From IMG/VR virus record IMGVR_UViG_3300032163_000003, positions 32,001 through 96,000 of that record: DNA of 64,000 bases. One strand, given 5' to 3'. Below are positions 35,564 to 59,977 of this stretch, piece by piece; position 1 is the stretch's first letter; every line of letters starts with the position of its first letter. The notes below the pieces were generated by a model. It did no database searches, was not told the DNA's origin, and saw only the letters and a program-made list of their open reading frames with translations. The DNA is from a virus. The position numbers and the translations under genes are program-made.

Positions 35564-36277
35564 TTAACTCCTCATTAAAATTTCTATATCTTTTTTTAGT
35601 TGTTCTAACGACGGGACTATATCCCGATTTTTTAGGCCTCCATATCTTATAAATTTCCATCCTTGCTCTTCACATCTTTTCTGTCTTTCTATATCTTTTT
35701 TGGGGTCTCCCAATGGACCTTCATGATAATACCACCCATCATACTCAACTACAATTTTATGTTCAAGAATCACAGTATCTAAACTATAATTTAAAAATGG
35801 ATAATTGATAATTATAGTTAGGTTAGGAAATAATAATTCAACGTTCTTACAAATTGTAGATTGTGGAATAGAAGGATTTTTAATAAAACTAAGAGCATGT
35901 GAAGCTCCACCATTTTTCATCCGATGTCTTAGATTTTCTTTTCTTTTTTGGTTGATTCTCCAAGATTTTATTTGACTATCTATACATCTGTTCCTTACCT
36001 CAAGATCTTTCCAAGACTTCTTATGTGATTTTGATTGTTTTTCTTTTACATCCAGTTTATTTTGAATTTTTCTTTGTATTTTAGACATTTTTCTTTTCAT
36101 TTTTGGAGTATTAAGAAACTTCTTTCTGATTTTAGATAACTTATCTTTTACTTTATTCAAAGATTTTGAATTCTTTTTCCTTAAAACTGGACAAGAATTT
36201 TTACTCTCGCTGCAGCACCACTTACCATTCCCAAACTGTTTTATTGCTTCTTGACCACAACCATAATTACATAACAC
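35564..36277 (-). CDS. Putative homing endonuclease: CxYGCG module plus Vsr-like nuclease
   Basis: MLCNYGCGQEA..WCCS; YSLD..VEYDGWYYH..GWKFIRY. Confidence 0.75.
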   Translation of the reverse strand: MLCNYGCGQEAIKQFGNGKWCCSESKNSCPVLRKKNSKSLNKVKDKLSKIRKKFLNTPKMKRKMSKIQRKIQNKLDVKEKQSKSHKKSWKDLEVRNRCIDSQIKSWRINQKRKENLRHRMKNGGASHALSFIKNPSIPQSTICKNVELLFPNLTIIINYPFLNYSLDTVILEHKIVVEYDGWYYHEGPLGDPKKDIERQKRCEEQGWKFIRYGGLKNRDIVPSLEQLKKDIEILMRS

Positions 36278-36611: not shown

Positions 36612-37361
36612 TTAGTTTTCTCCTTTTGTTTGGTCCATCCCACAGACATTTTCTTTATCCTCTAGCAACTTTTTAATATCTTCTTTTACTTGATCTAGAG
36701 TTGGAAATTTCTGAAAAATATTGTATCTTAAGAACTTCCATCCCTCTTCTTCAATTTCTTGTTGTCTTCTCTTATCGTATTCTTTTCGATCTTCTTTGTA
36801 AAAATGATACCAACCATCAAATTCTAAAATAATTCCTAAACTAGAATCAGCTATATCTACAACATAATTTCTTTTTCCTTTTCCTCTATAAATAGGAAAT
36901 TTATGAATTGGTCGTGGAAGAAGTGTACAAGTCATATAGAAAAGTTCGTTTTCTGGTTTAGAATCATCTGAAATACAAGAACACATATAGACCGCTTGCC
37001 AATCCTTCATTCGTTTTGATTGTCTCTTCCTGCTTTCTTTCGTTACGAAACTAGCTGTGTAACTCGCTCCTCCATTTTTCATATATTCTGATTGAATTCT
37101 ACATTCCTCGTGAGTTTCTTTAGTTCTACCAGTTATTTTTTCTGCTTGAATTCTTCTTCCTTCATGGTTCTCTTTTGTTCTTCCTATAAGTTTTTCTGCT
37201 TGTTTCTTTCGTCCTTCGTTATTTTCTTTCGTTCTTCCTCTTTTTGGGTCTCCTGTTCTTTTCTTTATTACTGGACAAGAATTCTGACTCTCACTACAAC
37301 ATCGTTTGCCATTCTTTAACGTATGCTTCCCTTCTTGTCCACAACCATATTCACAAAGCAT
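36612..37361 (-). CDS. Putative homing endonuclease: CxYGCG module, GRTKEN repeats, Vsr-like nuclease
   Basis: Three 18-aa GRTKE repeats; VVDIA..LEFDGWYHF. Confidence 0.75.
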   Translation of the reverse strand: MLCEYGCGQEGKHTLKNGKRCCSESQNSCPVIKKRTGDPKRGRTKENNEGRKKQAEKLIGRTKENHEGRRIQAEKITGRTKETHEECRIQSEYMKNGGASYTASFVTKESRKRQSKRMKDWQAVYMCSCISDDSKPENELFYMTCTLLPRPIHKFPIYRGKGKRNYVVDIADSSLGIILEFDGWYHFYKEDRKEYDKRRQQEIEEEGWKFLRYNIFQKFPTLDQVKEDIKKLLEDKENVCGMDQTKGEN

Positions 37362-40035: not shown

Positions 40036-40166
40036 TGGTGGCGGCGGGTGATTTCGAACCACCATTACCTAACTGAGGATTTCACTTCACAGTTCCAGAA
40101 GTACCGCGAATCCTCCATGTCTATCCCAACTAGGTAGGCTTGTTACCCCCTTAGCCGACAACCGCC
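40036..40166 (-). ncRNA. tRNA-like RNA with structured insertion replacing the anticodon loop
   Basis: GGCGGT/GCCGCC acceptor with ACCA end, D-like arm, T arm GGTGG-TTCGAAA-TCACC, 10-bp anticodon-position stem enclosing further hairpins. Confidence 0.7.
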
Positions 40167-40173
40167 TTTAGTT

Positions 40174-40251
40174 TGGTAGCCCATGCAGGACTCGAACCTG
40201 CGACCTAGGACTTAGAAGGACCTTGCTCTATTCCACCTGAGCTAATGGGTC
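40174..40251 (-). tRNA. tRNA-Arg(TCT)
   Basis: Loop CTTCTAA; CCA; single mismatches in acceptor and anticodon stems. Confidence 0.85.
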
Positions 40252-40932
40252 TTTTCTATGAGTCTTTAAGTTAAACTTATAGTTCTTAGTTAAAGAATGA
40301 TGATTTGGACACAAAAGTTCTAAATTTTCTTCTATTGAACTAAATCTATTTCCATCTATATGATGTAGTTCTAGAGGAATTAGATTAGTAAATTGATTTA
40401 CTTCTGACCATCCACATACAGAACATTTATTGTTGTATTTTTTTAGGATGTACTTCCTTATAAGAGTAGAAGCACCACCTGATGTATTTCCAGAAATTTT
40501 TCCGTCTTTCCATTTACTTATATATTCTTTATATTTATACTCACTATGACAAAAACCATTGCAAAACTGTTTCATCCACTTAATAACTTTCCCGCAATTT
40601 TTACAGTAGCTTATTCTAAAAAATTTTGGTATTCTATTTTTGTTGTTATAGAAAGCAGCACATGTACTATTACAAAATTTTTTATTGTGGTTTATTTCCT
40701 TGTTACACCATAGGCAATATTCTATCGTACATGTTTTTTTATGAAGAGGAAAAGCCATTGATCCAACTGTCTTATTACACACCGGACATAAAACTCTAGG
40801 TTTGGATTTAAGCGAGATTGAACTTCGATTTCTTTTTCCTGGACATTTATTAATACTATTACTACAACATCGTTTCTTTCCAATTTTAAACTTTGATTCT
40901 TGACCACATCCGTATTCGCATAACATATACAT
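40228..40932 (-). CDS. HNH homing endonuclease with CxYGCG module; ends inside tRNA-Arg
   Basis: MLCEYGCGQE; CSVCG...LELHHIDGN...NLELLCPNHH. Confidence 0.85.
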   Translation of the reverse strand: MYMLCEYGCGQESKFKIGKKRCCSNSINKCPGKRNRSSISLKSKPRVLCPVCNKTVGSMAFPLHKKTCTIEYCLWCNKEINHNKKFCNSTCAAFYNNKNRIPKFFRISYCKNCGKVIKWMKQFCNGFCHSEYKYKEYISKWKDGKISGNTSGGASTLIRKYILKKYNNKCSVCGWSEVNQFTNLIPLELHHIDGNRFSSIEENLELLCPNHHSLTKNYKFNLKTHRKDPLAQVE

Positions 40933-40941
40933 ATCTCCTTT

Positions 40942-40953
40942 TAGTATATGTTC
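40942..40953 (-). promoter_or_regulatory. Candidate late promoter upstream of HEG
   Basis: GAACATATACTA. Confidence 0.45.
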
Positions 40954-40983
40954 TATATACGAATACGAATGGGAACACTCCTT

Positions 40984-48935: not shown

Positions 48936-49022
48936 TGGCGGAGGGTGCAAGACTCGAACTCGCAAGTCTGTTACAACGGTGGGGTTCAGACCCACTCCCT
49001 TACCAATTAGGGTTAACCCTCC
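48936..49022 (-). tRNA. tRNA-Ser(TGA), C33 variant
   Basis: GTGGG-TCTGAAC-CCCAC; long variable region; G73; CCA. Confidence 0.8.
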
Positions 49023-49729
49023 TCATATAATTTAATAAAATCTTTTCCATATGTGTCTATTACATACGAAAATATATTTTTCATTTCTTCTTTCATTAAT
49101 ACTACTAATTTTCCTGGAAATTGTTTAATCTTTTCGTTAGTTTGCTCACATAGAAATGATTTTACTTCTATATAGGTATCATCAGGATATTTATAGTCTG
49201 GAACATATTTATAAACTTTTCCGTTCCAAAAGTAATCAAACTTTTTAGAATTTCTTTTAAACTGAATTTTGTTATCTAAATGATAGATAACAAAAGCCAA
49301 TTCCCAAGATGAGTCACACCAGAATCCTTTGTACCAGCCTTTCTTCCCGATTCCAGATCCTTGTCTGTATCCTCCATTATTAGATATTAAAGCTTTCTCT
49401 TTTATTTTTCTTCTTCGCTCTTTCTCTTTCTCTTCAGTTTTGGCCATTCCAGTAAGATGTAAACTAGAGATTGACTTAGAAAGTTTCTTTTTAACTTCTA
49501 TACTTCTTTCTTTTCCAAATATCTCCTCGTAATTTTTTCCTTTAAGTGGAGACAATTTTCCTAACCATGGTTTTGGATGCCCATTTTTCCACTTTGGACA
49601 TTTTCCTTTTTTCTTTAAACTATCAAGTCTTCGTTTTTCTGGACATTTATTCATACTATTAGAACAGCACCACTTTCCGTTCTTAAACTGATATTTTGCT
49701 TCTTTTTTACAACCATATAAACATAACAT
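49013..49729 (-). CDS. Putative homing endonuclease: CxYGC module plus PD-(D/E)XK nuclease; ends inside tRNA-Ser
   Basis: MLCLYGCKKEAKYQFKNGKWCCS; DSSWE...YVPDY...YIEVK. Confidence 0.8.
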   Translation of the reverse strand: MLCLYGCKKEAKYQFKNGKWCCSNSMNKCPEKRRLDSLKKKGKCPKWKNGHPKPWLGKLSPLKGKNYEEIFGKERSIEVKKKLSKSISSLHLTGMAKTEEKEKERRRKIKEKALISNNGGYRQGSGIGKKGWYKGFWCDSSWELAFVIYHLDNKIQFKRNSKKFDYFWNGKVYKYVPDYKYPDDTYIEVKSFLCEQTNEKIKQFPGKLVVLMKEEMKNIFSYVIDTYGKDFIKLYEEG

Positions 49730-49730
49730 A

Positions 49731-49768
49731 TTTTGATCTCCTATTTATTTGTTCTAAGAAGATCAAAA
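49731..49768 (-). promoter_or_regulatory. RBS-sequestering hairpin with candidate late promoter in its loop
   Basis: TTTTGATCTTCT pairs with AGGAGATCAAAA; loop TAGAACAAATAAAT. Confidence 0.6.
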
Positions 49769-49801
49769 CTTGCGCCATAAACCAGACTCGGCCAACTCTC
49801 C
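49763..49801 (-). pseudogene. Orphan 5' half of tRNA-Ser(TGA)
   Basis: GGAGAGT TG GCCG AGTCTGGTTTA TGGC G CAAGT TT TGA, with no matching 3' half. Confidence 0.75.
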
Positions 49802-50464: not shown

Positions 50465-50896
50465 TTAGTTTCTCCTCAGTTCTTCTCTTACTTTCATCAA
50501 AATTTTTCCTAAATTATTCTCTCCTTTTCCTGTTCTTAAGTCTATTCCCCAATATGTATCATTCCAATAGTTTCCTTCTTGGAGAATAGAATCTCCAGTG
50601 TTTAGAAGCATCTGTTTTAGAACTAGGTTGTTCATAAACTTCTTACGAACTAATTCGTACATAATCCCATACTTTATCTCGTTCCATCCGTTTCTTAGTT
50701 TTACTTTCTTTCCTAGTCTTTTTGTGTCACCTGGAGTTTCACAAACTAGAATTTGTTGTCTATAATTCTTGTCAAGAGATTTTGCTGCTTGATATGCGTG
50801 TTCCAAAGTTTTATATACAACCTCGTCATAGCTTACCAAAGAAGGATAGAAGTTTGAAAGGAACCTAAACTCTTTCTGAAACTCTTTTACTATCAT
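50465..50896 (-). CDS. NADAR-family protein
   Basis: FLSNFY, TLEHAYQAAK, LLNTG, DTYWG, GENNLGKILMKVR. Confidence 0.92.
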   Translation of the reverse strand: MIVKEFQKEFRFLSNFYPSLVSYDEVVYKTLEHAYQAAKSLDKNYRQQILVCETPGDTKRLGKKVKLRNGWNEIKYGIMYELVRKKFMNNLVLKQMLLNTGDSILQEGNYWNDTYWGIDLRTGKGENNLGKILMKVREELRRN

Positions 50897-51867
50897 TATT
50901 TCTCCTTTAACAAATACTTATTCGAAAGCCTCTTCAACCACTTTCTTCCCACATAGTTGTCTAACTGTTCCTTCTCAGACCTAATCACAATGCCTTCTCG
51001 AATGTGACAGCCGTTCCCAAGAACAGTTAATCCATCTGCTAGTTCTTCAATTACTTTTAATGAAAAAGGTCCTCTATATAGAACCGGAGGTGTCTTGAAA
51101 TCTAGTTCCTTACAAATAGACTCTACCTCATCCCAGTCAAGAAACTTTCCATTTACCTGAATATCGAAAACTATGAAGTTCTGGTTAGTAAGACCATATG
51201 TAAGATTCTGTACTGACTTTCCGTAAATCTCTGCGTATGGGATTGCGTCTTCCGAACGCCATTTATTTAGAACTTTGTCTTCTAATCCATACTTTGTAGC
51301 TATTAAAGAATATATGCTTCCACCCGGATGTTTCTTGATATTGAAATGACTTCCAACGTAAAAAACATTTTCGACAACACCAAATCTAAAGTTGGTTCCA
51401 TGAATCTTTTCTGTTATGAAAACCTCTTCTCCAACCTTGAAAACGTCTGGAAAGTTTTGAATTCTTTCAATGTCTGTCTTGTATGAAAATCCAGCTACGT
51501 TAGGAGCATTATCTCCACCAAAACTAACTGGATCTGGTGGTTCGTATTTTTTAACTCCTAATTCTTCTGTGACATCTTGTCCTTCTATCCAACCTTCCTT
51601 AGATGGAACTAGAAGACCCTGACTAAGAATCTTTCTTAGTTTAATAGTTTTGATTCTAAAGTGTCTATCTCTCAAAAACTCCCATTCAGAAGTTTCAGGA
51701 AGGATAGAATCAATTGGTATATAAGCGCCCAAACTTTTTCCTTCGAAGTCAGTTGTTTTTACTACACACTGCCATTGTGTTTCACCTACAGTTGCTATAG
51801 ATAGGGTATCAGCGTTTGGATGCTTTTCAAGTTTGAAAGAAACAACTTTAACTGAAAATTGACTCAT
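50896..51867 (-). CDS. RNA ligase, DRB0094 family
   Basis: HPNADTL N-terminus, LSQGL, TEKIHGTN, YAEIYG, FDI, REGIVIR. Confidence 0.88.
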   Translation of the reverse strand: MSQFSVKVVSFKLEKHPNADTLSIATVGETQWQCVVKTTDFEGKSLGAYIPIDSILPETSEWEFLRDRHFRIKTIKLRKILSQGLLVPSKEGWIEGQDVTEELGVKKYEPPDPVSFGGDNAPNVAGFSYKTDIERIQNFPDVFKVGEEVFITEKIHGTNFRFGVVENVFYVGSHFNIKKHPGGSIYSLIATKYGLEDKVLNKWRSEDAIPYAEIYGKSVQNLTYGLTNQNFIVFDIQVNGKFLDWDEVESICKELDFKTPPVLYRGPFSLKVIEELADGLTVLGNGCHIREGIVIRSEKEQLDNYVGRKWLKRLSNKYLLKEK

Positions 51868-52366
51868 TGATTTTTTCCTCCTTTTTACTTCCCGAATCTA
51901 GTCTCATTCTGTGACATTTAGCGCAAGTAGTTATCCAATTTGATTGTTCCATCAAAGTATAATCTTTTGCGATAGATGTACAATGCATTGATAAAGACTG
52001 TTGTGTGTCTTGAATTTCTTCTTCATTTATTTTTCCACATAATTCACAGTTTTGTTTCCCAAACAACTCTTTAGCTTTGTCATGCTAGTAAAGACTACAT
52101 CCTCCTTTCCATGACGAATGACTTTCTCCATATTTTCCAAATAAATAGTTATTTTTTCCAGAATTAGATAGATTTTTTCTTCCAAGTTTTAATTCTCTAA
52201 TCCTTCTTCTAACTTCTAATCTTTTAGTTGGGTTATTTTCCCCAGAAAAAGCTTTCCTTCTTTCTGAACATTTTTTGTAATGATCTGAACAGCATAACCT
52301 TCCATTCTTAAATTGATATTTTGCTTCTTGTCCACAACCATAATCACACAATCTCATTAAAGTCAC
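51848..52366 (-). pseudogene. CxYGCG-module HNH-like endonuclease interrupted by one in-frame TAG
   Basis: ORFs 52085..52366 and 51848..52066 are in the same frame: GCSLY*HDKAKELFGKQNCELCG...MHC...NWITTCAKCH. Confidence 0.7.
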
Positions 52367-52368
52367 CT

Positions 52369-52848
52369 TTACATAAAACTTTCTACCATCGATGGTCTAT
52401 TACTTTTTAAATAATGAGCGATGAGTTTTCCAATTTCCTTCGCTTCAGCTTCAACATATCCGTCTTTTATTAAATCTTGTTGAAATCTCAATACCGTCAG
52501 ATATAAAGCATCTTGACTAATCCACTCTCTTCCAAGACTAGCTAAGAACATTTGAAAGATTTTTGGAATTACTACGCCCTTATGCTTCCATTCAATCTCT
52601 CTTCTCTTTTGTACGTCTTTTCTCCAGCTGTTTAGATTCATACAACATCCTTCTTCAGCATAGAGTTCCTTTCGATAGATCTCTCCAAGATTTCCTGGAA
52701 GTTGCATGAGCATACATATATATCTTTTTCTATCTTCGTTCCATTCTAAAGCCGGACAAACTTCAGCTGAAGTATAAAGTCTAACTGCTGCTCCGCATTT
52801 AGCTTTGAAGCAGCAGAATCCACATCCAATACATTCATCTATTTTCAT
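52369..52848 (-). CDS. Cys-cluster (YkgJ-like, possible Fe-S) protein
   Basis: CIGCGFCC...C...CPAL...C...GCC. Confidence 0.55.
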   Translation of the reverse strand: MKIDECIGCGFCCFKAKCGAAVRLYTSAEVCPALEWNEDRKRYICMLMQLPGNLGEIYRKELYAEEGCCMNLNSWRKDVQKRREIEWKHKGVVIPKIFQMFLASLGREWISQDALYLTVLRFQQDLIKDGYVEAEAKEIGKLIAHYLKSNRPSMVESFM

Positions 52849-53083: not shown

Positions 53084-53158
53084 TGGAGCCACCAGAAGGA
53101 TTCGAACCCTCGAAAGTTGATTACAGGTCAACCATTTTTCCATCTAAATTATAGTGGC
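53084..53158 (-). tRNA. tRNA-Thr(TGT), C33 variant with weak D arm
   Basis: GTTGA-CCTGTAA-TCAAC; GCCACTA/TGGTGGC acceptor; CCA. Confidence 0.78.
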
Positions 53159-53753
53159 TAAACTTTTCTAAGAATTCTTTTTCATATTTTTCTACTTTTT
53201 CAATTATTACTTCTTTAAACTTACAATGTATATACTTATGATGAGTTGGACAAAGAGGAATCAAATTTTCCGGATTTATATTTTGTTTATTTTCGTCTAA
53301 GTGATGAACATCAACAATAAGATTCTCTTCACATATTATGCATTTTTTTTCATGAAATTGAAAGCAAACTTCTCTATACTTATACTTTCCATTATCCTCT
53401 TCATAGTTTTTGTTGAAAAACCTCCTGGCGCATCTATTAGAACATGTTTCAGTTAAAGTATAATATTTTATAGGTTTTTCACAAATTGGGCAAAGTTTTA
53501 AATTTTTAGGGTTTAAGTAGCATGTTTCAGAATGTTTACTAATATTGGATGAAGTTTTTTCTTTTTTACAAAATTCACACGGAACTTTTTTATATTGTCC
53601 ATTGCTTTTAGTCCCATTCTTATACATTTGAAACTGACGTTCTGAATTCTTTTTTCTTAAAGATGGACATCGTTGATAAATTTCATTACAACACATCTTT
53701 CCACTTTTTAGTTGATAAATCCCTTCTCTTCCACACCCATATTGACATAACAT
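53121..53753 (-). CDS. HNH homing endonuclease with CxYGCG module; stop codon in the tRNA-Thr anticodon loop
   Basis: MLCQYGCGRE; CIIC...VDVHHLD...NLIPLCPTHH. Confidence 0.85.
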   Translation of the reverse strand: MLCQYGCGREGIYQLKSGKMCCNEIYQRCPSLRKKNSERQFQMYKNGTKSNGQYKKVPCEFCKKEKTSSNISKHSETCYLNPKNLKLCPICEKPIKYYTLTETCSNRCARRFFNKNYEEDNGKYKYREVCFQFHEKKCIICEENLIVDVHHLDENKQNINPENLIPLCPTHHKYIHCKFKEVIIEKVEKYEKEFLEKFSHYNLDGKMVDL

Positions 53754-53779
53754 GGTGTATTCCTCTCTATTTAGATCTT

Positions 53780-53791
53780 TATTATATGTTC
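53780..53791 (-). promoter_or_regulatory. Candidate late promoter upstream of HEG
   Basis: GAACATATAATA. Confidence 0.45.
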
Positions 53792-53832
53792 TAACTTAAG
53801 GAGAAATTGGTAGAGTGCCAGATCTTCAACTC

Positions 53833-53869
53833 TACCAATCAACCGTTCCTATCATTAGACAATTCGGGC
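53833..53869 (-). pseudogene. Orphan 5' half of a tRNA-Thr(GGT)-like gene
   Basis: GCCCGAA TT GTCT AATGATAGGAACG GTTGA TT GGT A; same GTTGA stem as the downstream tRNA-Thr. Confidence 0.55.
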
Positions 53870-54125
53870 TTTTATCTTTTAATTCTTTCAGAAGCATCCA
53901 ACACTTCTGACAATTCTTTTCCGATTAAGTCACTCGAACTTTTATCTTTTACTTCTGCTAGAGGTTTTGCGCACCAAGGACAAAACTTAAAAACTTTTCC
54001 TGTGTACTTTGTTCCCCAAGAATGAATAGTTGGAGACACCATTACTTGAGCTGATATTATCTGGGGCATTCCAATTTTAAAATCTTTACAATCACATTCC
54101 ATACCCACAGTTTTCTCCTTTTAGA

Positions 54126-54193
54126 AAAGGGTGGGGAGATTTTACTCCCATCTTCTCATCTACCAGATGAGGCTTTAATTAAGCTACACCCTT
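54126..54193 (-). ncRNA. Non-canonical tRNA-like cloverleaf (anticodon position GGT)
   Basis: All four stems pair, but the D loop lacks GG, the T loop lacks TTC and there is no CCA. Confidence 0.55.
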
Positions 54194-54195
54194 GT

Positions 54196-54271
54196 TGGTC
54201 GGGGTGGCAGGACTTGAACCTGCGACATCTCGGTCCCAGGCCGAGGACTCTACCAACTGAGCTACACCCCG
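54196..54271 (-). tRNA. tRNA-Pro(TGG), C33 variant
   Basis: CTCGG-CCTGGGA-CCGAG; C1:G72; CCA. Confidence 0.88.
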
Positions 54272-54276
54272 ATAGT

Positions 54277-54744
54277 TTAACAAATCTTAAATCCACCACA
54301 ATCCAAAAGAAAGTTTCGAAACTCCTTTACATTTTCCTCGCTGAATGGATATTCAACATCGAGAGCCTCCCTTTTCCCTTTTCCTTTACACCCGTTACAT
54401 TCCATATCTCCTGGACCAATATTTGGTGGGGGTTGTCTCTTTCCTGTACCTCCACAAACAGTACAATCTTCTAGAGGAATCTCCTCTAACATTTTGATAT
54501 ACTCTACCTCATACTTTTTCACTTCACCTGAATCTAAAAGTTCTGTGAGTCTTTTACTCAGTGCGAGAGACCTAGTGCAATTTAGACCCCACCCATCATT
54601 ACTATGTCCACCGTTGTCTTTTGAAATTAAGTCTGGTGCTGCTTGTACACAATAGTTCCATAAAGGTCTCCACCACCAAACATTGTTTCTAAAATATTCT
54701 CCAGTCTTAGATTTTGGTTTTCTTCCGTAAACATCCATTCCCAT
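54277..54744 (-). CDS. Conserved phage hypothetical protein with inserted CxxCxGxG pair
   Basis: MGMDVYG..YFRNNVWWWRPLW; CTVCGGTG..CNGCKGKG. Confidence 0.65.
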   Translation of the reverse strand: MGMDVYGRKPKSKTGEYFRNNVWWWRPLWNYCVQAAPDLISKDNGGHSNDGWGLNCTRSLALSKRLTELLDSGEVKKYEVEYIKMLEEIPLEDCTVCGGTGKRQPPPNIGPGDMECNGCKGKGKREALDVEYPFSEENVKEFRNFLLDCGGFKIC

Positions 54745-58700: not shown

Positions 58701-58842
58701 ACTCTTTAATTACAAAACCAGAATCTTCTACTGGTCTTAGCATTTCTCGAATCTTGTCTTTTAGCTCGAGATATTCCTGTTCTCTAATTTTGAAAATATC
58801 TAAACTATTTTTTATTACAAAATTTGGATTTACTATTTTCAA
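55768..58842 (-). CDS. rpoB: Phage multisubunit RNA polymerase beta-like subunit
   Basis: GRICPVDTPDRENCG, MASSQMRQA, GLNYEDS, GDKIGNRHGNKGVV, SRMNLGQ, GGQRCGEME. Confidence 0.93.
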   Translation of the reverse strand: MKIVNPNFVIKNSLDIFKIREQEYLELKDKIREMLRPVEDSGFVIKEFEIKDLRPSTDELEKTLKKSIVILLGKGNHDFDLSMAIPKLVDGNYIKVSGKKKVPIFQLFDIPIVTRGADIKLRTNVGTIMVSHRKEPDSTFVDYVYVTILGKKIPFAILLFAYYGYEEIEKRFELDKIEAPIITDSSSIADKLLYDLKVYHESSVGYSKEDFITDVGKNYSTIDPLTRGEKIIYSLDLLPRIDLMSSQFFHKDSVIEELLYAISNPVDDKDYRNKRIRCFEYVVLSKIAKNLFNLCLACFKSSSPKFNVNSKQIIQDCNVSNIIQFDFSINPIDELSKLTRISLVGPDGFTKENVPVHLRDLWPSMFGRICPVDTPDRENCGVLQNLLVNTKLDPNLRFSEELEEKSTISIPVSMVPFSEHDDQTRLQMASSQMRQAIMLEKPELPLVESGCERLYTDKTQFIKVARKDGQVIFLNDEFLVLLYDDKDYDTFDISIRNTHVENIDYMTSYVKLGERVKAGQILAESNFCENGQIKFGRNYLTAVMPYHGLNYEDSIIISERVQEQMFTSVHFVDLSFEIPPNKVLLDLSVDRKKYTPLPILDREDNKNERVKLAAIQENIPYAVMKEIPDGPVNFSSIFEEETKHSFNKPAYVFHLKVYPNNWNRSIPEYNKWVEQIKEKQLEEEKKIEETLLEHLPPEDVKKFLKENNLNMFSKTEKGRKYKIKGEEVKGVYVEMYGIYMRKIEVGDKIGNRHGNKGVVKILPKEKMPRMEDGKYVDICISPLSVISRMNLGQIFELHLGMSLVDLKRQLVTMLTEEKTQEELKKYILDYIKIIDNTEDNWYYKQFEEQLNKTTVDETFIYKLSVVEPPFESTTAEMVLKALEYTNTPSEYKMFDSISNRWVLNPIAVGYMYFFKMIHIAETKLAGRGIGVYNKRTLQPLGGRKNRGGQRCGEMETACLIAHGSTYNLHEFLTTKSDCTDLKNDYIRSVVESEFIRKPETLDKVPESVKLFDKYLQVIGLDSKD

Positions 58843-59977
58843 TAGTTGAGTCTCCTTTCTGGAGAAGAGTTGTTAGTTCTAATTTACTACTAACAACTCT
58901 TTTTTGTTTTACAATATTTTTAAAGAAACTTTCTAATTCTACTGATTTTATTTCTTTAATTAACTTTTTAAGAGAAATTGAGCAATTCTCTCGCTTACTT
59001 TTATTAGATAATTCTGGTATTACTTCTAAATTCTTCCAGTGACTTATTATTTTAGGGTGTACCTTATTTTTGAATCCCTGAAATATTGAGAATTTGTGGT
59101 CCAAGTTGTTGGTTTTACTTCGTAAACTAGAATGTGGAATTTTATCTTTATGTAGTTTGAAAGAGATATAAGTTTCTTTTTCTACATCTTGTTTATATCT
59201 TGCGTAGATAGATAGTATTTCTGGATCTTTCTTTCTATAGTACTGAGGACAGGTTTTCTTACAAATATTTGAGCAATACATAAATCCATGTCCATATCGT
59301 TTATCTTTTACTTGTAAGGTTTTAGCTCTCCAGTAAATTTGATATGATGCTGGTTCAAACCAAGTTCTACACACTTTACATCTAACTAAGATCTTTCCGT
59401 TTTCTTCTTTAATCTCCTCAAATTCAGAAAACCATGGATATCGTTTTGAGAACCTTTTGAATGTAAGTTTTGCTTGTTTCTTTCCCTTCATTCTAATGCT
59501 AATAGAAAGTTTAATCTCATCAGTATGTGTTTTATTAAACATTGGATGATTAAATCCAACCATTTTTCCTTTAACTCCAGCACCAATCTTTAATTTAATT
59601 ATTGGGCATGAATTCTGAATTTCTGAACAACACAATTTTTCATTTTTTAGTTTGTATTTGGCAACATTTCCACAACCATAAAAACATAATATATTTTCTG
59701 TATTTTCGAGCTTGCAGCTTTTGTGTCGATTCCCTGTTTTCTTTCCTTCATGTTTTTCTCGATTTTTCTTTTTTGATTCTTTAGTGTGGTGCTTTCCATA
59801 CATTGAATTCTTAGACCCTGGATTTCCGTATAACTTTCTAACAGATGAACATTTTCTGTAACTTTCACTGCAGCAAAATTTCTCTTGTAGTCCAACTTTA
59901 AACTTTGCCAACTGTCCACACCCATATCCACAGTAAATAGTTCCATCATTTTCAATTTTATAACTAATTTCCTTCAT
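58805..59977 (-). CDS. Putative homing endonuclease between RNAP genes (two CxYGCG modules, NUMOD3, HNH-like C-terminus)
   Basis: YCGYGCGQ and LCFYGCGN; MYGKHHT; LDHKFSIFQGF...NLEVIP..N. Confidence 0.75.
   Translation of the reverse strand: MKEISYKIENDGTIYCGYGCGQLAKFKVGLQEKFCCSESYRKCSSVRKLYGNPGSKNSMYGKHHTKESKKKNREKHEGKKTGNRHKSCKLENTENILCFYGCGNVAKYKLKNEKLCCSEIQNSCPIIKLKIGAGVKGKMVGFNHPMFNKTHTDEIKLSISIRMKGKKQAKLTFKRFSKRYPWFSEFEEIKEENGKILVRCKVCRTWFEPASYQIYWRAKTLQVKDKRYGHGFMYCSNICKKTCPQYYRKKDPEILSIYARYKQDVEKETYISFKLHKDKIPHSSLRSKTNNLDHKFSIFQGFKNKVHPKIISHWKNLEVIPELSNKSKRENCSISLKKLIKEIKSVELESFFKNIVKQKRVVSSKLELTTLLQKGDSTIENSKSKFCNKK

Follow-up and report, generated by a model that had tools for sequence, protein, structure and literature searches.

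Homing endonucleases in essential genes normally hide within self-splicing introns or inteins, and bacterial tRNA genes can carry group I introns with homing endonucleases in the anticodon loop. Other homing endonucleases are free-standing. Those encoded within phage tRNA clusters include the GIY-YIG enzyme SegB of T4 and the F-Tfl HNH enzymes of T5 (PMC2330249; PMC13096335). SegB cuts the tRNA genes of phages that lack segB and takes neighbouring tRNA genes along (PMC2330249; PMC13096335). The segB stop codon is lost when the downstream tRNA-Arg matures, which has been proposed as a means of expression control (PMC2330249). Endonuclease ORFs of fungal mitochondria (Allomyces macrogynus atp6; Glomus atp6, atp9, cox2 and nad3) insert and supply a divergent gene end, and the displaced native part stays beside the insert as an unused duplicate (PMC3630166).

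Here we describe a locus in the tRNA array of a large uncultured phage recorded in IMG/VR. The source record is 110 kb long and about 35% complete by estimate; its bases 32001-96000, a stretch of 64,000 nucleotides, are referred to as the window. On the minus strand the locus contains, in order of transcription, a tRNA-like 5' half (the orphan), an HNH nuclease gene and an intact tRNA-Thr(UGU). We believe that at this Thr locus a free-standing HNH homing-endonuclease cassette has probably disrupted a resident tRNA gene and brought a spare, a reading drawn from sequence comparison.

The locus resembles T4 segB in that the nuclease gene lies amid tRNA genes and its ORF likewise ends within a tRNA, here tRNA-Thr. 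However, SegB belongs to another nuclease family (GIY-YIG). Its recognition site is a T-arm motif and its cuts fall close to the 3' ends of tRNA genes, whereas the breaks seen here are at the anticodon arm. Nor does the published account of SegB mention orphan tRNA halves on either side of the nuclease gene, or a same-isotype spare of divergent sequence. The fungal mitochondrial ORFs are similar in that an endonuclease insert carries a divergent replacement with the native remnant adjoining, but they occupy protein genes whose 3' end is replaced in frame. The present case is in a phage, where the insert supplies a complete tRNA and what remains of the old gene is mainly a 5' half. Group I tRNA introns share the insertion point in the anticodon loop and the endonuclease-driven spread; in contrast, no intron RNA or 3' exon was detected here, the downstream tRNA is complete and its acceptor does not pair with the orphan. 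In the literature on phage and tRNA topics, of which our coverage is incomplete, no account came to light of a nuclease cassette that splits a phage tRNA gene and brings a spare.

The nuclease gene and its array

The window has a G+C content of about 34% and is transcribed almost entirely from the minus strand. ARAGORN finds 22 tRNA genes on that strand, with small ORFs between them. At least seven of the small ORFs share an N-terminal module, MLCxYGCGxE..Y..KNGK.CCS....CP, joined to various nuclease domains (35564-36277, 36612-37361, 40228-40932, 49013-49729, 52085-52366, 53121-53753 and 58805-59977, all minus strand). The Cys module (L-C-x-Y-G-C ... C-C ... C) is found on HNH and on DUF559/Vsr-like domains, and a NUMOD3-bearing protein has it twice. 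From this distribution it looks like a shared module for DNA binding or targeting that has moved between homing endonucleases.

Other genes of the array are of the same kind. The HNH nuclease at 40228-40932 (minus strand; PHROG 1271, E 3e-16) runs 24 nt into tRNA-Arg(UCU) (40174-40251, minus strand); it has an exact TAGAACATATACTAAA motif upstream and is preceded by an intact tRNA-Lys with no orphan. At 51848-52366 (minus strand), what looks like a homing endonuclease gene split in two comprises a 93-aa ORF, which has the N-terminal module and matches NUMOD3 weakly, and after it a separate 72-aa ORF that matches HNH weakly. An RNA ligase gene lies at the edge of the array (50896-51867, minus strand; Pfam RNA_ligase, E 5e-25, plus a PHA02142 OB fold), and a possible role for its product is tRNA repair.

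The nuclease ORF of the Thr locus (53121..53753, minus strand) encodes 210 amino acids beginning with MLCQYGCG and matches PHROG 1271, 'HNH endonuclease' (E 3.3e-9). It comprises the N-terminal CxYGCG..CC..CP module, two zinc-finger-like Cys/His clusters and a C-terminal HNH (His-Me finger) domain. Pfam HNH families match below threshold only (HNH_3, 19.1 bits against a cut-off of 24.8). A large protein collection yielded 152 homologues, the best of them 51% identical. An alignment of 29 homologues shows an invariant N-terminal Cys module, two more Cys/His clusters and the core CxxC..HH.D..N..N.L.P.C..H..H, in which C138, C141, H150, H151, D153, N158, N163, C168, H171 and H176 are invariant. 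The HNH (His-Me finger) fold is a beta-beta-alpha-metal motif with conserved His and Asn residues and usually CxxC zinc ligands. As the ORF has these residues, and as its motif aligns with the HNH domain of an IscB chain, the product is a predicted HNH endonuclease. The first-pass annotation, made from the letters of the window, had named a CxYGCG plus HNH nuclease, and this assignment holds.

The gene has its own ATG start, a purine-rich sequence like a ribosome-binding site (GAGAGGAA) and an upstream motif. It is free-standing and does not lie inside an intron or intein. Rfam finds no intron family in the 36-56 kb part of the window or in five related loci.

A tRNA-like 5' half upstream of the nuclease gene

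The ORF upstream (54108..53872, minus strand) has its stop at 53872, just 5' of the orphan. The orphan itself (53832..53869, minus strand) is 38 nt long and sits on the nuclease-gene strand in the 116-nt spacer immediately upstream of that gene. It can be laid out as an acceptor strand GCCCGAA (7 nt), TT, GTCT, a D loop, GGA(A)C, G, GTTGA and the loop TTGGTAG. U8, a 5-nt anticodon-stem strand and the loop UUGGUAG are present. The D arm forms four pairs provided that one A bulges, and G18G19 is missing from the D loop; the imperfection of this arm had been pointed out at first sight of the sequence.

The Rfam tRNA model does not match the orphan, either in a 20-kb scan (window 36-56 kb) or as a cut-out piece. 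It is also silent on a cut-out true tRNA-Thr 5' half and on the cut-out Ser orphan described below. As the model misses genuine 5' halves it is powerless for halves, and we therefore built half-tRNA models. R1 is a 5'-half covariance model with a D stem, built from 140 aligned tRNA 5' halves (positions 1-38) of other phage loci, and was run across the entire window with filters off (128 kb of strand). R2 is the matching 3'-half model; it finds 22 of the 22 true 3' halves in the window (16.4-37 bits).

R1 scores the orphan at 13.9 bits over model positions 1-38, within the range of the 22 true 5' halves of the window (13.3-32.1 bits) and above every other match outside tRNAs. The next two such matches tie at 11.6 bits: AT-rich noise where two ORFs meet, and a stretch in the spacer upstream of the Ser-locus nuclease (49801..49761). 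The E-value of the orphan is 0.0045 for the 600-nt neighbourhood and 0.48 over the whole window, so the match alone is not significant. The covariance-model check that the first-pass annotation had called for gives a score within the range of true halves, with a window-wide E-value that does not confirm it.

That E-value favours the leading alternative, in which an ordinary free-standing homing endonuclease occupies an array spacer as T4 segB does, tRNA-Thr(UGU) is a resident gene and the 'half tRNA' is a chance likeness beside a terminator hairpin and a promoter. The failure of the Rfam model to find the orphan would count in the same direction, but that test also fails on the true tRNA-Thr 5' half. 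Against chance stands the position of the orphan: the best non-tRNA match of the whole window falls on the correct strand in one specific 116-nt spacer. We regard the alternative as unlikely, and return to it with the evidence from relatives.

The isotype of the orphan is a separate matter. Among 664 phage tRNAs, tRNA-Thr is among its best matches, level with Asp and Trp. A Thr-type remnant is plausible from the GCC start, U33 and A37. The first-pass annotation had described a Thr-like 5' half ending at anticodon GGT, of which the tRNA-like layout stands. The Thr(GGU) identity is not secure because the 'anticodon' lies inside a hairpin arm; the replacement of Thr(GGU) by Thr(UGU) depends on a loop that doubles as that arm and is equally insecure. 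A remnant of tRNA-Pro(UGG), with the register ATTGGTA, was rejected, as position 37 would be U and the acceptor starts with GCC, not CGG or CTC. The orphan is identical to the 5' half of the adjacent intact tRNA-Thr at 21 of 38 positions. The two share the 6-nt anticodon-stem strand GGTTGA.

R2 finds no 3' half in the window to partner the orphan, the best remaining non-tRNA score being 8.8 bits or less apart from 40073..40036. This last, at 40036-40073 (minus strand, 20.8 bits), is the sole R2 match outside called tRNAs in the window. Taken with the order of the parts and with the related loci below, the orphan would in our judgement rather likely be the decayed 5' scar (53869..53832) of a tRNA gene broken on the arrival of the nuclease and tRNA-Thr(UGU).

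A further tRNA-like gene lies 2 nt after tRNA-Pro(UGG), at 54126-54193 (minus strand). It scores 42 bits with the Rfam model and was missed by ARAGORN. It has the anticodon loop CUGGUAG (GGU, Thr), a very short D loop without GG and the T loop UAAAAUC, and both R1 and R2 score it poorly. Its features are those of either a pseudo-tRNA or a non-canonical tRNA-Thr(GGU). The orphan has only TGGTAGA and GAAGAT in common with it (54193..54126).

The intact tRNA-Thr(UGU) and its overlap with the nuclease ORF

The intact tRNA-Thr(UGU) (53084..53158, minus strand) is called by ARAGORN and scores 56.4 bits with the Rfam tRNA model, 20.3 bits with R1 and 29.0 bits with R2. Its nearest neighbours among the 664 phage tRNAs are all tRNA-Thr. 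A special kinship with the nuclease-fused tRNA-Thr of L082 finds no support, as that tRNA is a top-three match but is not distinct from other tRNA-Thr.

The nuclease ORF overlaps this tRNA by 38 nt, that is, 12 codons (SHYNLDGKMVDL) and the stop TAA at tRNA positions 36-38, so that the last 12 codons do run inside a complete tRNA-Thr(TGT) as first noted. Conservation in the alignment of 29 homologues does not extend to the final 20 or so residues of the nuclease, 12 of which the tRNA encodes. The tail therefore appears to come from read-through up to the first stop codon and not to be a functional peptide. The long ORF/tRNA overlap as such is probably no more than read-through; overlaps of 10-53 nt are usual in the nuclease family. 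The first stop codon of the ORF lies within the tRNA, so maturation of the tRNA by RNase P would strip the nuclease mRNA of it, and this loss probably holds nuclease expression low.

U33 is near-universal in tRNAs. In the window, C33 takes its place in tRNA-Ser(UGA) (48936-49022), tRNA-Thr(UGU) (53084-53158) and tRNA-Pro(UGG) (54196-54271), all on the minus strand. C33 occurs in 14 of the 664 phage tRNAs; eight of these 14 are tRNA-Pro, and several adjoin an HNH gene (e.g. L100, L106 and L129). It may confer immunity to the nuclease, or to anticodon nucleases of the host.

The hairpin and motif upstream of the nuclease gene

A perfect 11-bp hairpin (ATTGGTAGAGT/ACTCTACCAAT) with a 12-nt loop lies between the orphan and the nuclease gene (53806-53816 and 53829-53839, minus strand), its 5' arm beginning inside the loop of the orphan. 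The hairpin overlapping the orphan anticodon had been reported from the sequence with coordinates one base off. Markov simulations predict 0.6 perfect hairpins of such size for the window, which has six, and the fold energy of the spacer has a z of -2.3. The hairpin would likely act as a terminator or insulator before the nuclease promoter.

Downstream of both hairpin arms is the promoter-like motif TAGAACATATAATAAA (53778..53793, minus strand), which marks the left control region of the cassette. The promoter motif that the first reading had proposed is a conserved upstream motif (53793..53778), copies of which lie upstream of other nuclease genes. Its exact copies in the window are this one and 40955..40940, upstream of another nuclease gene, and a copy with two mismatches precedes the Ser-locus nuclease. 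A TAGAACA core 25-40 nt upstream of the start is kept in the homologues L081-L084 of other phages and in three nuclease genes of the window. Scans for sigma-70 and terminator consensus sequences gave no signal at the hairpin or the motif.

At L084 and at the Ser locus of the window a hairpin holds the motif in its loop and spans the ribosome site with its 3' arm. T4 endonuclease genes have the same set-up, by which read-through transcripts are silenced and transcripts from an internal late promoter are translated (PMC2330249). At the Thr locus, where the two arms precede the motif, the terminator or insulator role is the likelier one. Hairpins beside the TAGAACA motif are also found in relatives whose upstream tRNAs are intact.

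The Ser locus of the same array has the better-formed remnant, a tRNA-Ser 5' half at 49761-49801 (minus strand) that ends at TTTGA. There the repeat TTTTGATCT/AGATCAAAA pairs the anticodon region of the orphan with the ribosome site of the next nuclease gene, with TAGAACA in the hairpin loop. The nuclease ORF (49013-49729, minus strand) overlaps tRNA-Ser(UGA) by 10 nt, and its C-terminal domain matches no Pfam or PHROG family. The Thr locus has the same order of parts and the same break at the anticodon loop as the Ser locus and as the tRNA-Pro orphans described next.

Relatives of the nuclease and broken tRNA-Pro genes

A profile scan of IMG/VR with the nuclease family gave 80 loci, or 66 once identical proteins were removed. 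A tRNA on the same strand starts between -60 and +20 nt from the ORF stop in 45 of the 66, and the ORF overlaps its tRNA by 10-53 nt in 37. The ORF-end tRNA is tRNA-Pro(UGG) in 35 of the 45 loci. A tRNA-Pro lies within 100 nt upstream in 14 of the 66 loci, and beside the nuclease gene on any side or strand in 52.

We scanned 31 loci of the family with R1 and R2 and also inspected their sequences. R1 finds tRNA-Pro 5' halves that run through the loop TTTGGGA in L093 (24.3 bits), L099 (25.5), L101 (17.6) and L102 (15.7); L094 and L096 are as L093. In all six, the half joins a conserved stretch (AAATCTCGTTTTT...) that continues up to the nuclease start. Shorter tRNA-Pro 5' fragments are present in L092, which breaks in the anticodon, in L098, L124 and L139, which break after the D arm, and in L104 and L109, which break in the D loop. 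L134 breaks after the anticodon stem, and its 5' piece (22.0 bits) and 3' piece (28.3 bits) make up one tRNA-Pro that is split by the nuclease and a second tRNA-Pro. For an enrichment control, called tRNAs were masked and each sequence window was scored by local matching against all tRNA-Pro 5' halves, the top score being kept, with a threshold of 40. A tRNA-Pro 5' fragment was found in 9 of 66 sequence windows upstream of the nuclease versus 2 of 961 elsewhere in the same loci.

The intact tRNA-Pro at the ORF end is far from the orphan in sequence; it starts with CTCCGG versus CGGAGT in the orphan, and the stems differ. It is near-identical in L093, L098, L101 and L102 though their orphans differ. 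Straight after the intact tRNA-Pro follows a 38-nt 3' tRNA piece in L098 (R2, 21.6 bits), L104 (21.4 bits), L109 (20.9 bits) and L099. The acceptor strand of the 3' fragment pairs with the 5' strand of the orphan in L099, L104, L109 and L134. From these comparisons, the layout of a broken tRNA, a nuclease and an intact spare tRNA is supported as one that recurs at tRNA-Pro(UGG) in many unrelated viral contigs. Between the cassette tRNA-Pro and the 3' orphan, L093 (2979-3130) and L101 (3006-3160) have about 150 nt of conserved DNA with hairpin-like repeats that ends in CCACCA; no Rfam family matches this stretch.

The family also includes plain arrangements, which favour the spacer-resident alternative. 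The five closest full-length homologues (L081-L085) lie in spacers between intact, unrelated tRNAs of other isotypes, with hairpins next to the same motif, so the nuclease subfamily also lives as a plain spacer resident. One of them, L082, speaks for the cassette in another respect, as its nuclease, 42% identical over the full length, overlaps a tRNA-Thr(UGU) as in the window. On the side of the alternative, tRNA-Thr(UGU) follows a homologue of ORF 54744..54277 (ORF155), with no nuclease, in the distant relatives L004, L007 and L172; the window tRNA-Thr could therefore be a resident gene and not cargo. Set against this, the same nuclease family demonstrably leaves tRNA fragments at this very position, and the break point of the Thr orphan is that of the tRNA-Pro orphans and the Ser locus. 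This weighs with us in placing the resident reading well below the cassette.

Empty sites were sought through the flanking genes. In relatives found through ORF 54744..54277 the nuclease is absent at the corresponding site, but they are only 45-68% identical in that protein and the synteny is thus weak. The best matches by this route were 57% in IMG/VR and 68% in metagenome contigs, where the best contig stops at the gene. Phage records searched at the DNA and protein level gave distant matches only, with no close relative or empty-site allele, and IMG/VR searched with ORF 52848..52369 or with the nuclease alone gave no close relative. The flank of L099 used as a query matched only itself.

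The same surroundings are seen in two cultured jumbo phages. In Xanthomonas phage XbC2 (L161, 1163-1404) the tRNA genes Pro-Val-Pro are followed 63 nt on by the HNH gene, and the two tRNA-Pro(UGG) genes differ from each other. In Serratia phage BF a tRNA-Pro and an annotated 'tRNA-Pseudo' precede the nuclease homologue, which begins 64 nt on. This 'tRNA-Pseudo' (L163, 1176-1250) is a CTCC-type tRNA-Pro that resembles the spare tRNA of the metagenomic cassettes.

Duplicates of tRNA-Pro flank the nuclease in L100, L120 and XbC2. They bear on a second alternative, in which the fragment is a by-product of rearrangement provoked by the nuclease (partial tandem duplication or amplification at microhomology, followed by decay) and not of cassette insertion into a working gene. 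SegB drives amplification of units made of a tRNA and a truncated segB, by way of microhomology that the 5' end of the tRNA shares with the 3' end of segB (PMC13096335), and GGTTGA is common to the orphan and the intact tRNA of the window. However, identity of 21/38 is too low for a recent duplicate. In the relatives the orphan and the spare tRNA-Pro differ throughout, whereas the 5' and 3' orphans match one another. Such an origin is in our view very unlikely.

Discussion

An intron-containing tRNA gene can be dismissed, as there is no orphan 3' half and no intron match, and the acceptor TGGTGGC of the downstream tRNA does not pair with GCCCGAA. We adopt the cassette reading of the Thr locus because of the evidence from the nuclease family and because the order of parts and the break point in the anticodon loop are those of the Ser locus. 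The Thr locus is one of the weaker examples of a tRNA-breaking cassette. The first-pass annotation had proposed a recurring strategy from the likeness of the Ser and Thr loci; the proposal is borne out at the tRNA-Pro(UGG) loci of relatives, where 5' and 3' fragments are found, and is less secure at the Thr locus itself, where the orphan is degenerate and no 3' half is present.

The proposed cassette would consist of its own promoter-like motif, the nuclease gene and, joined to the ORF end, the intact tRNA-Thr(UGU). On co-infection with a phage that lacks the cassette, the nuclease would cut that phage's tRNA gene, either within the anticodon arm or immediately 3' of it. Repair off the cassette-bearing genome would then install the nuclease together with the divergent tRNA, which is presumably resistant to cutting. 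The supplied tRNA is divergent from the putative native fragment, both in the window (21/38) and at the tRNA-Pro loci; this divergence and the rare C33 of the spare are the hints of such resistance. As this spare would be copied in with the nuclease, the phage would retain a working tRNA without an intron. Pieces of the old gene would stay as flanking scars, which, where both persist, may provide the homology arms for a further round. In the window, the 5' scar alone would remain, in a decayed state.

A bolder extension, which we hold tentatively and would sooner doubt than assert, is that such cassettes are intron-free homing elements for RNA genes. Their tRNA would be recoded to resist cutting (C33-type immunity), the orphan halves would act as homology arms for hopping between unrelated arrays, and the cassettes would be among the chief influences on what the tRNA arrays of large phages contain, including their duplicates and pseudo-tRNAs.

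By destroying a tRNA gene yet supplying a functional tRNA of divergent sequence, such a cassette would offer a third solution beside introns and inteins. If true, it would account for the duplicate and 'pseudo' tRNAs beside HNH genes in phage arrays, and for oddly rewired phage tRNAs. It would also indicate candidate nucleases with specificity for tRNA genes. For annotation, tRNA fragments adjoining nuclease genes should not be discarded as noise, and nuclease ORFs that end within tRNAs should be taken as real.
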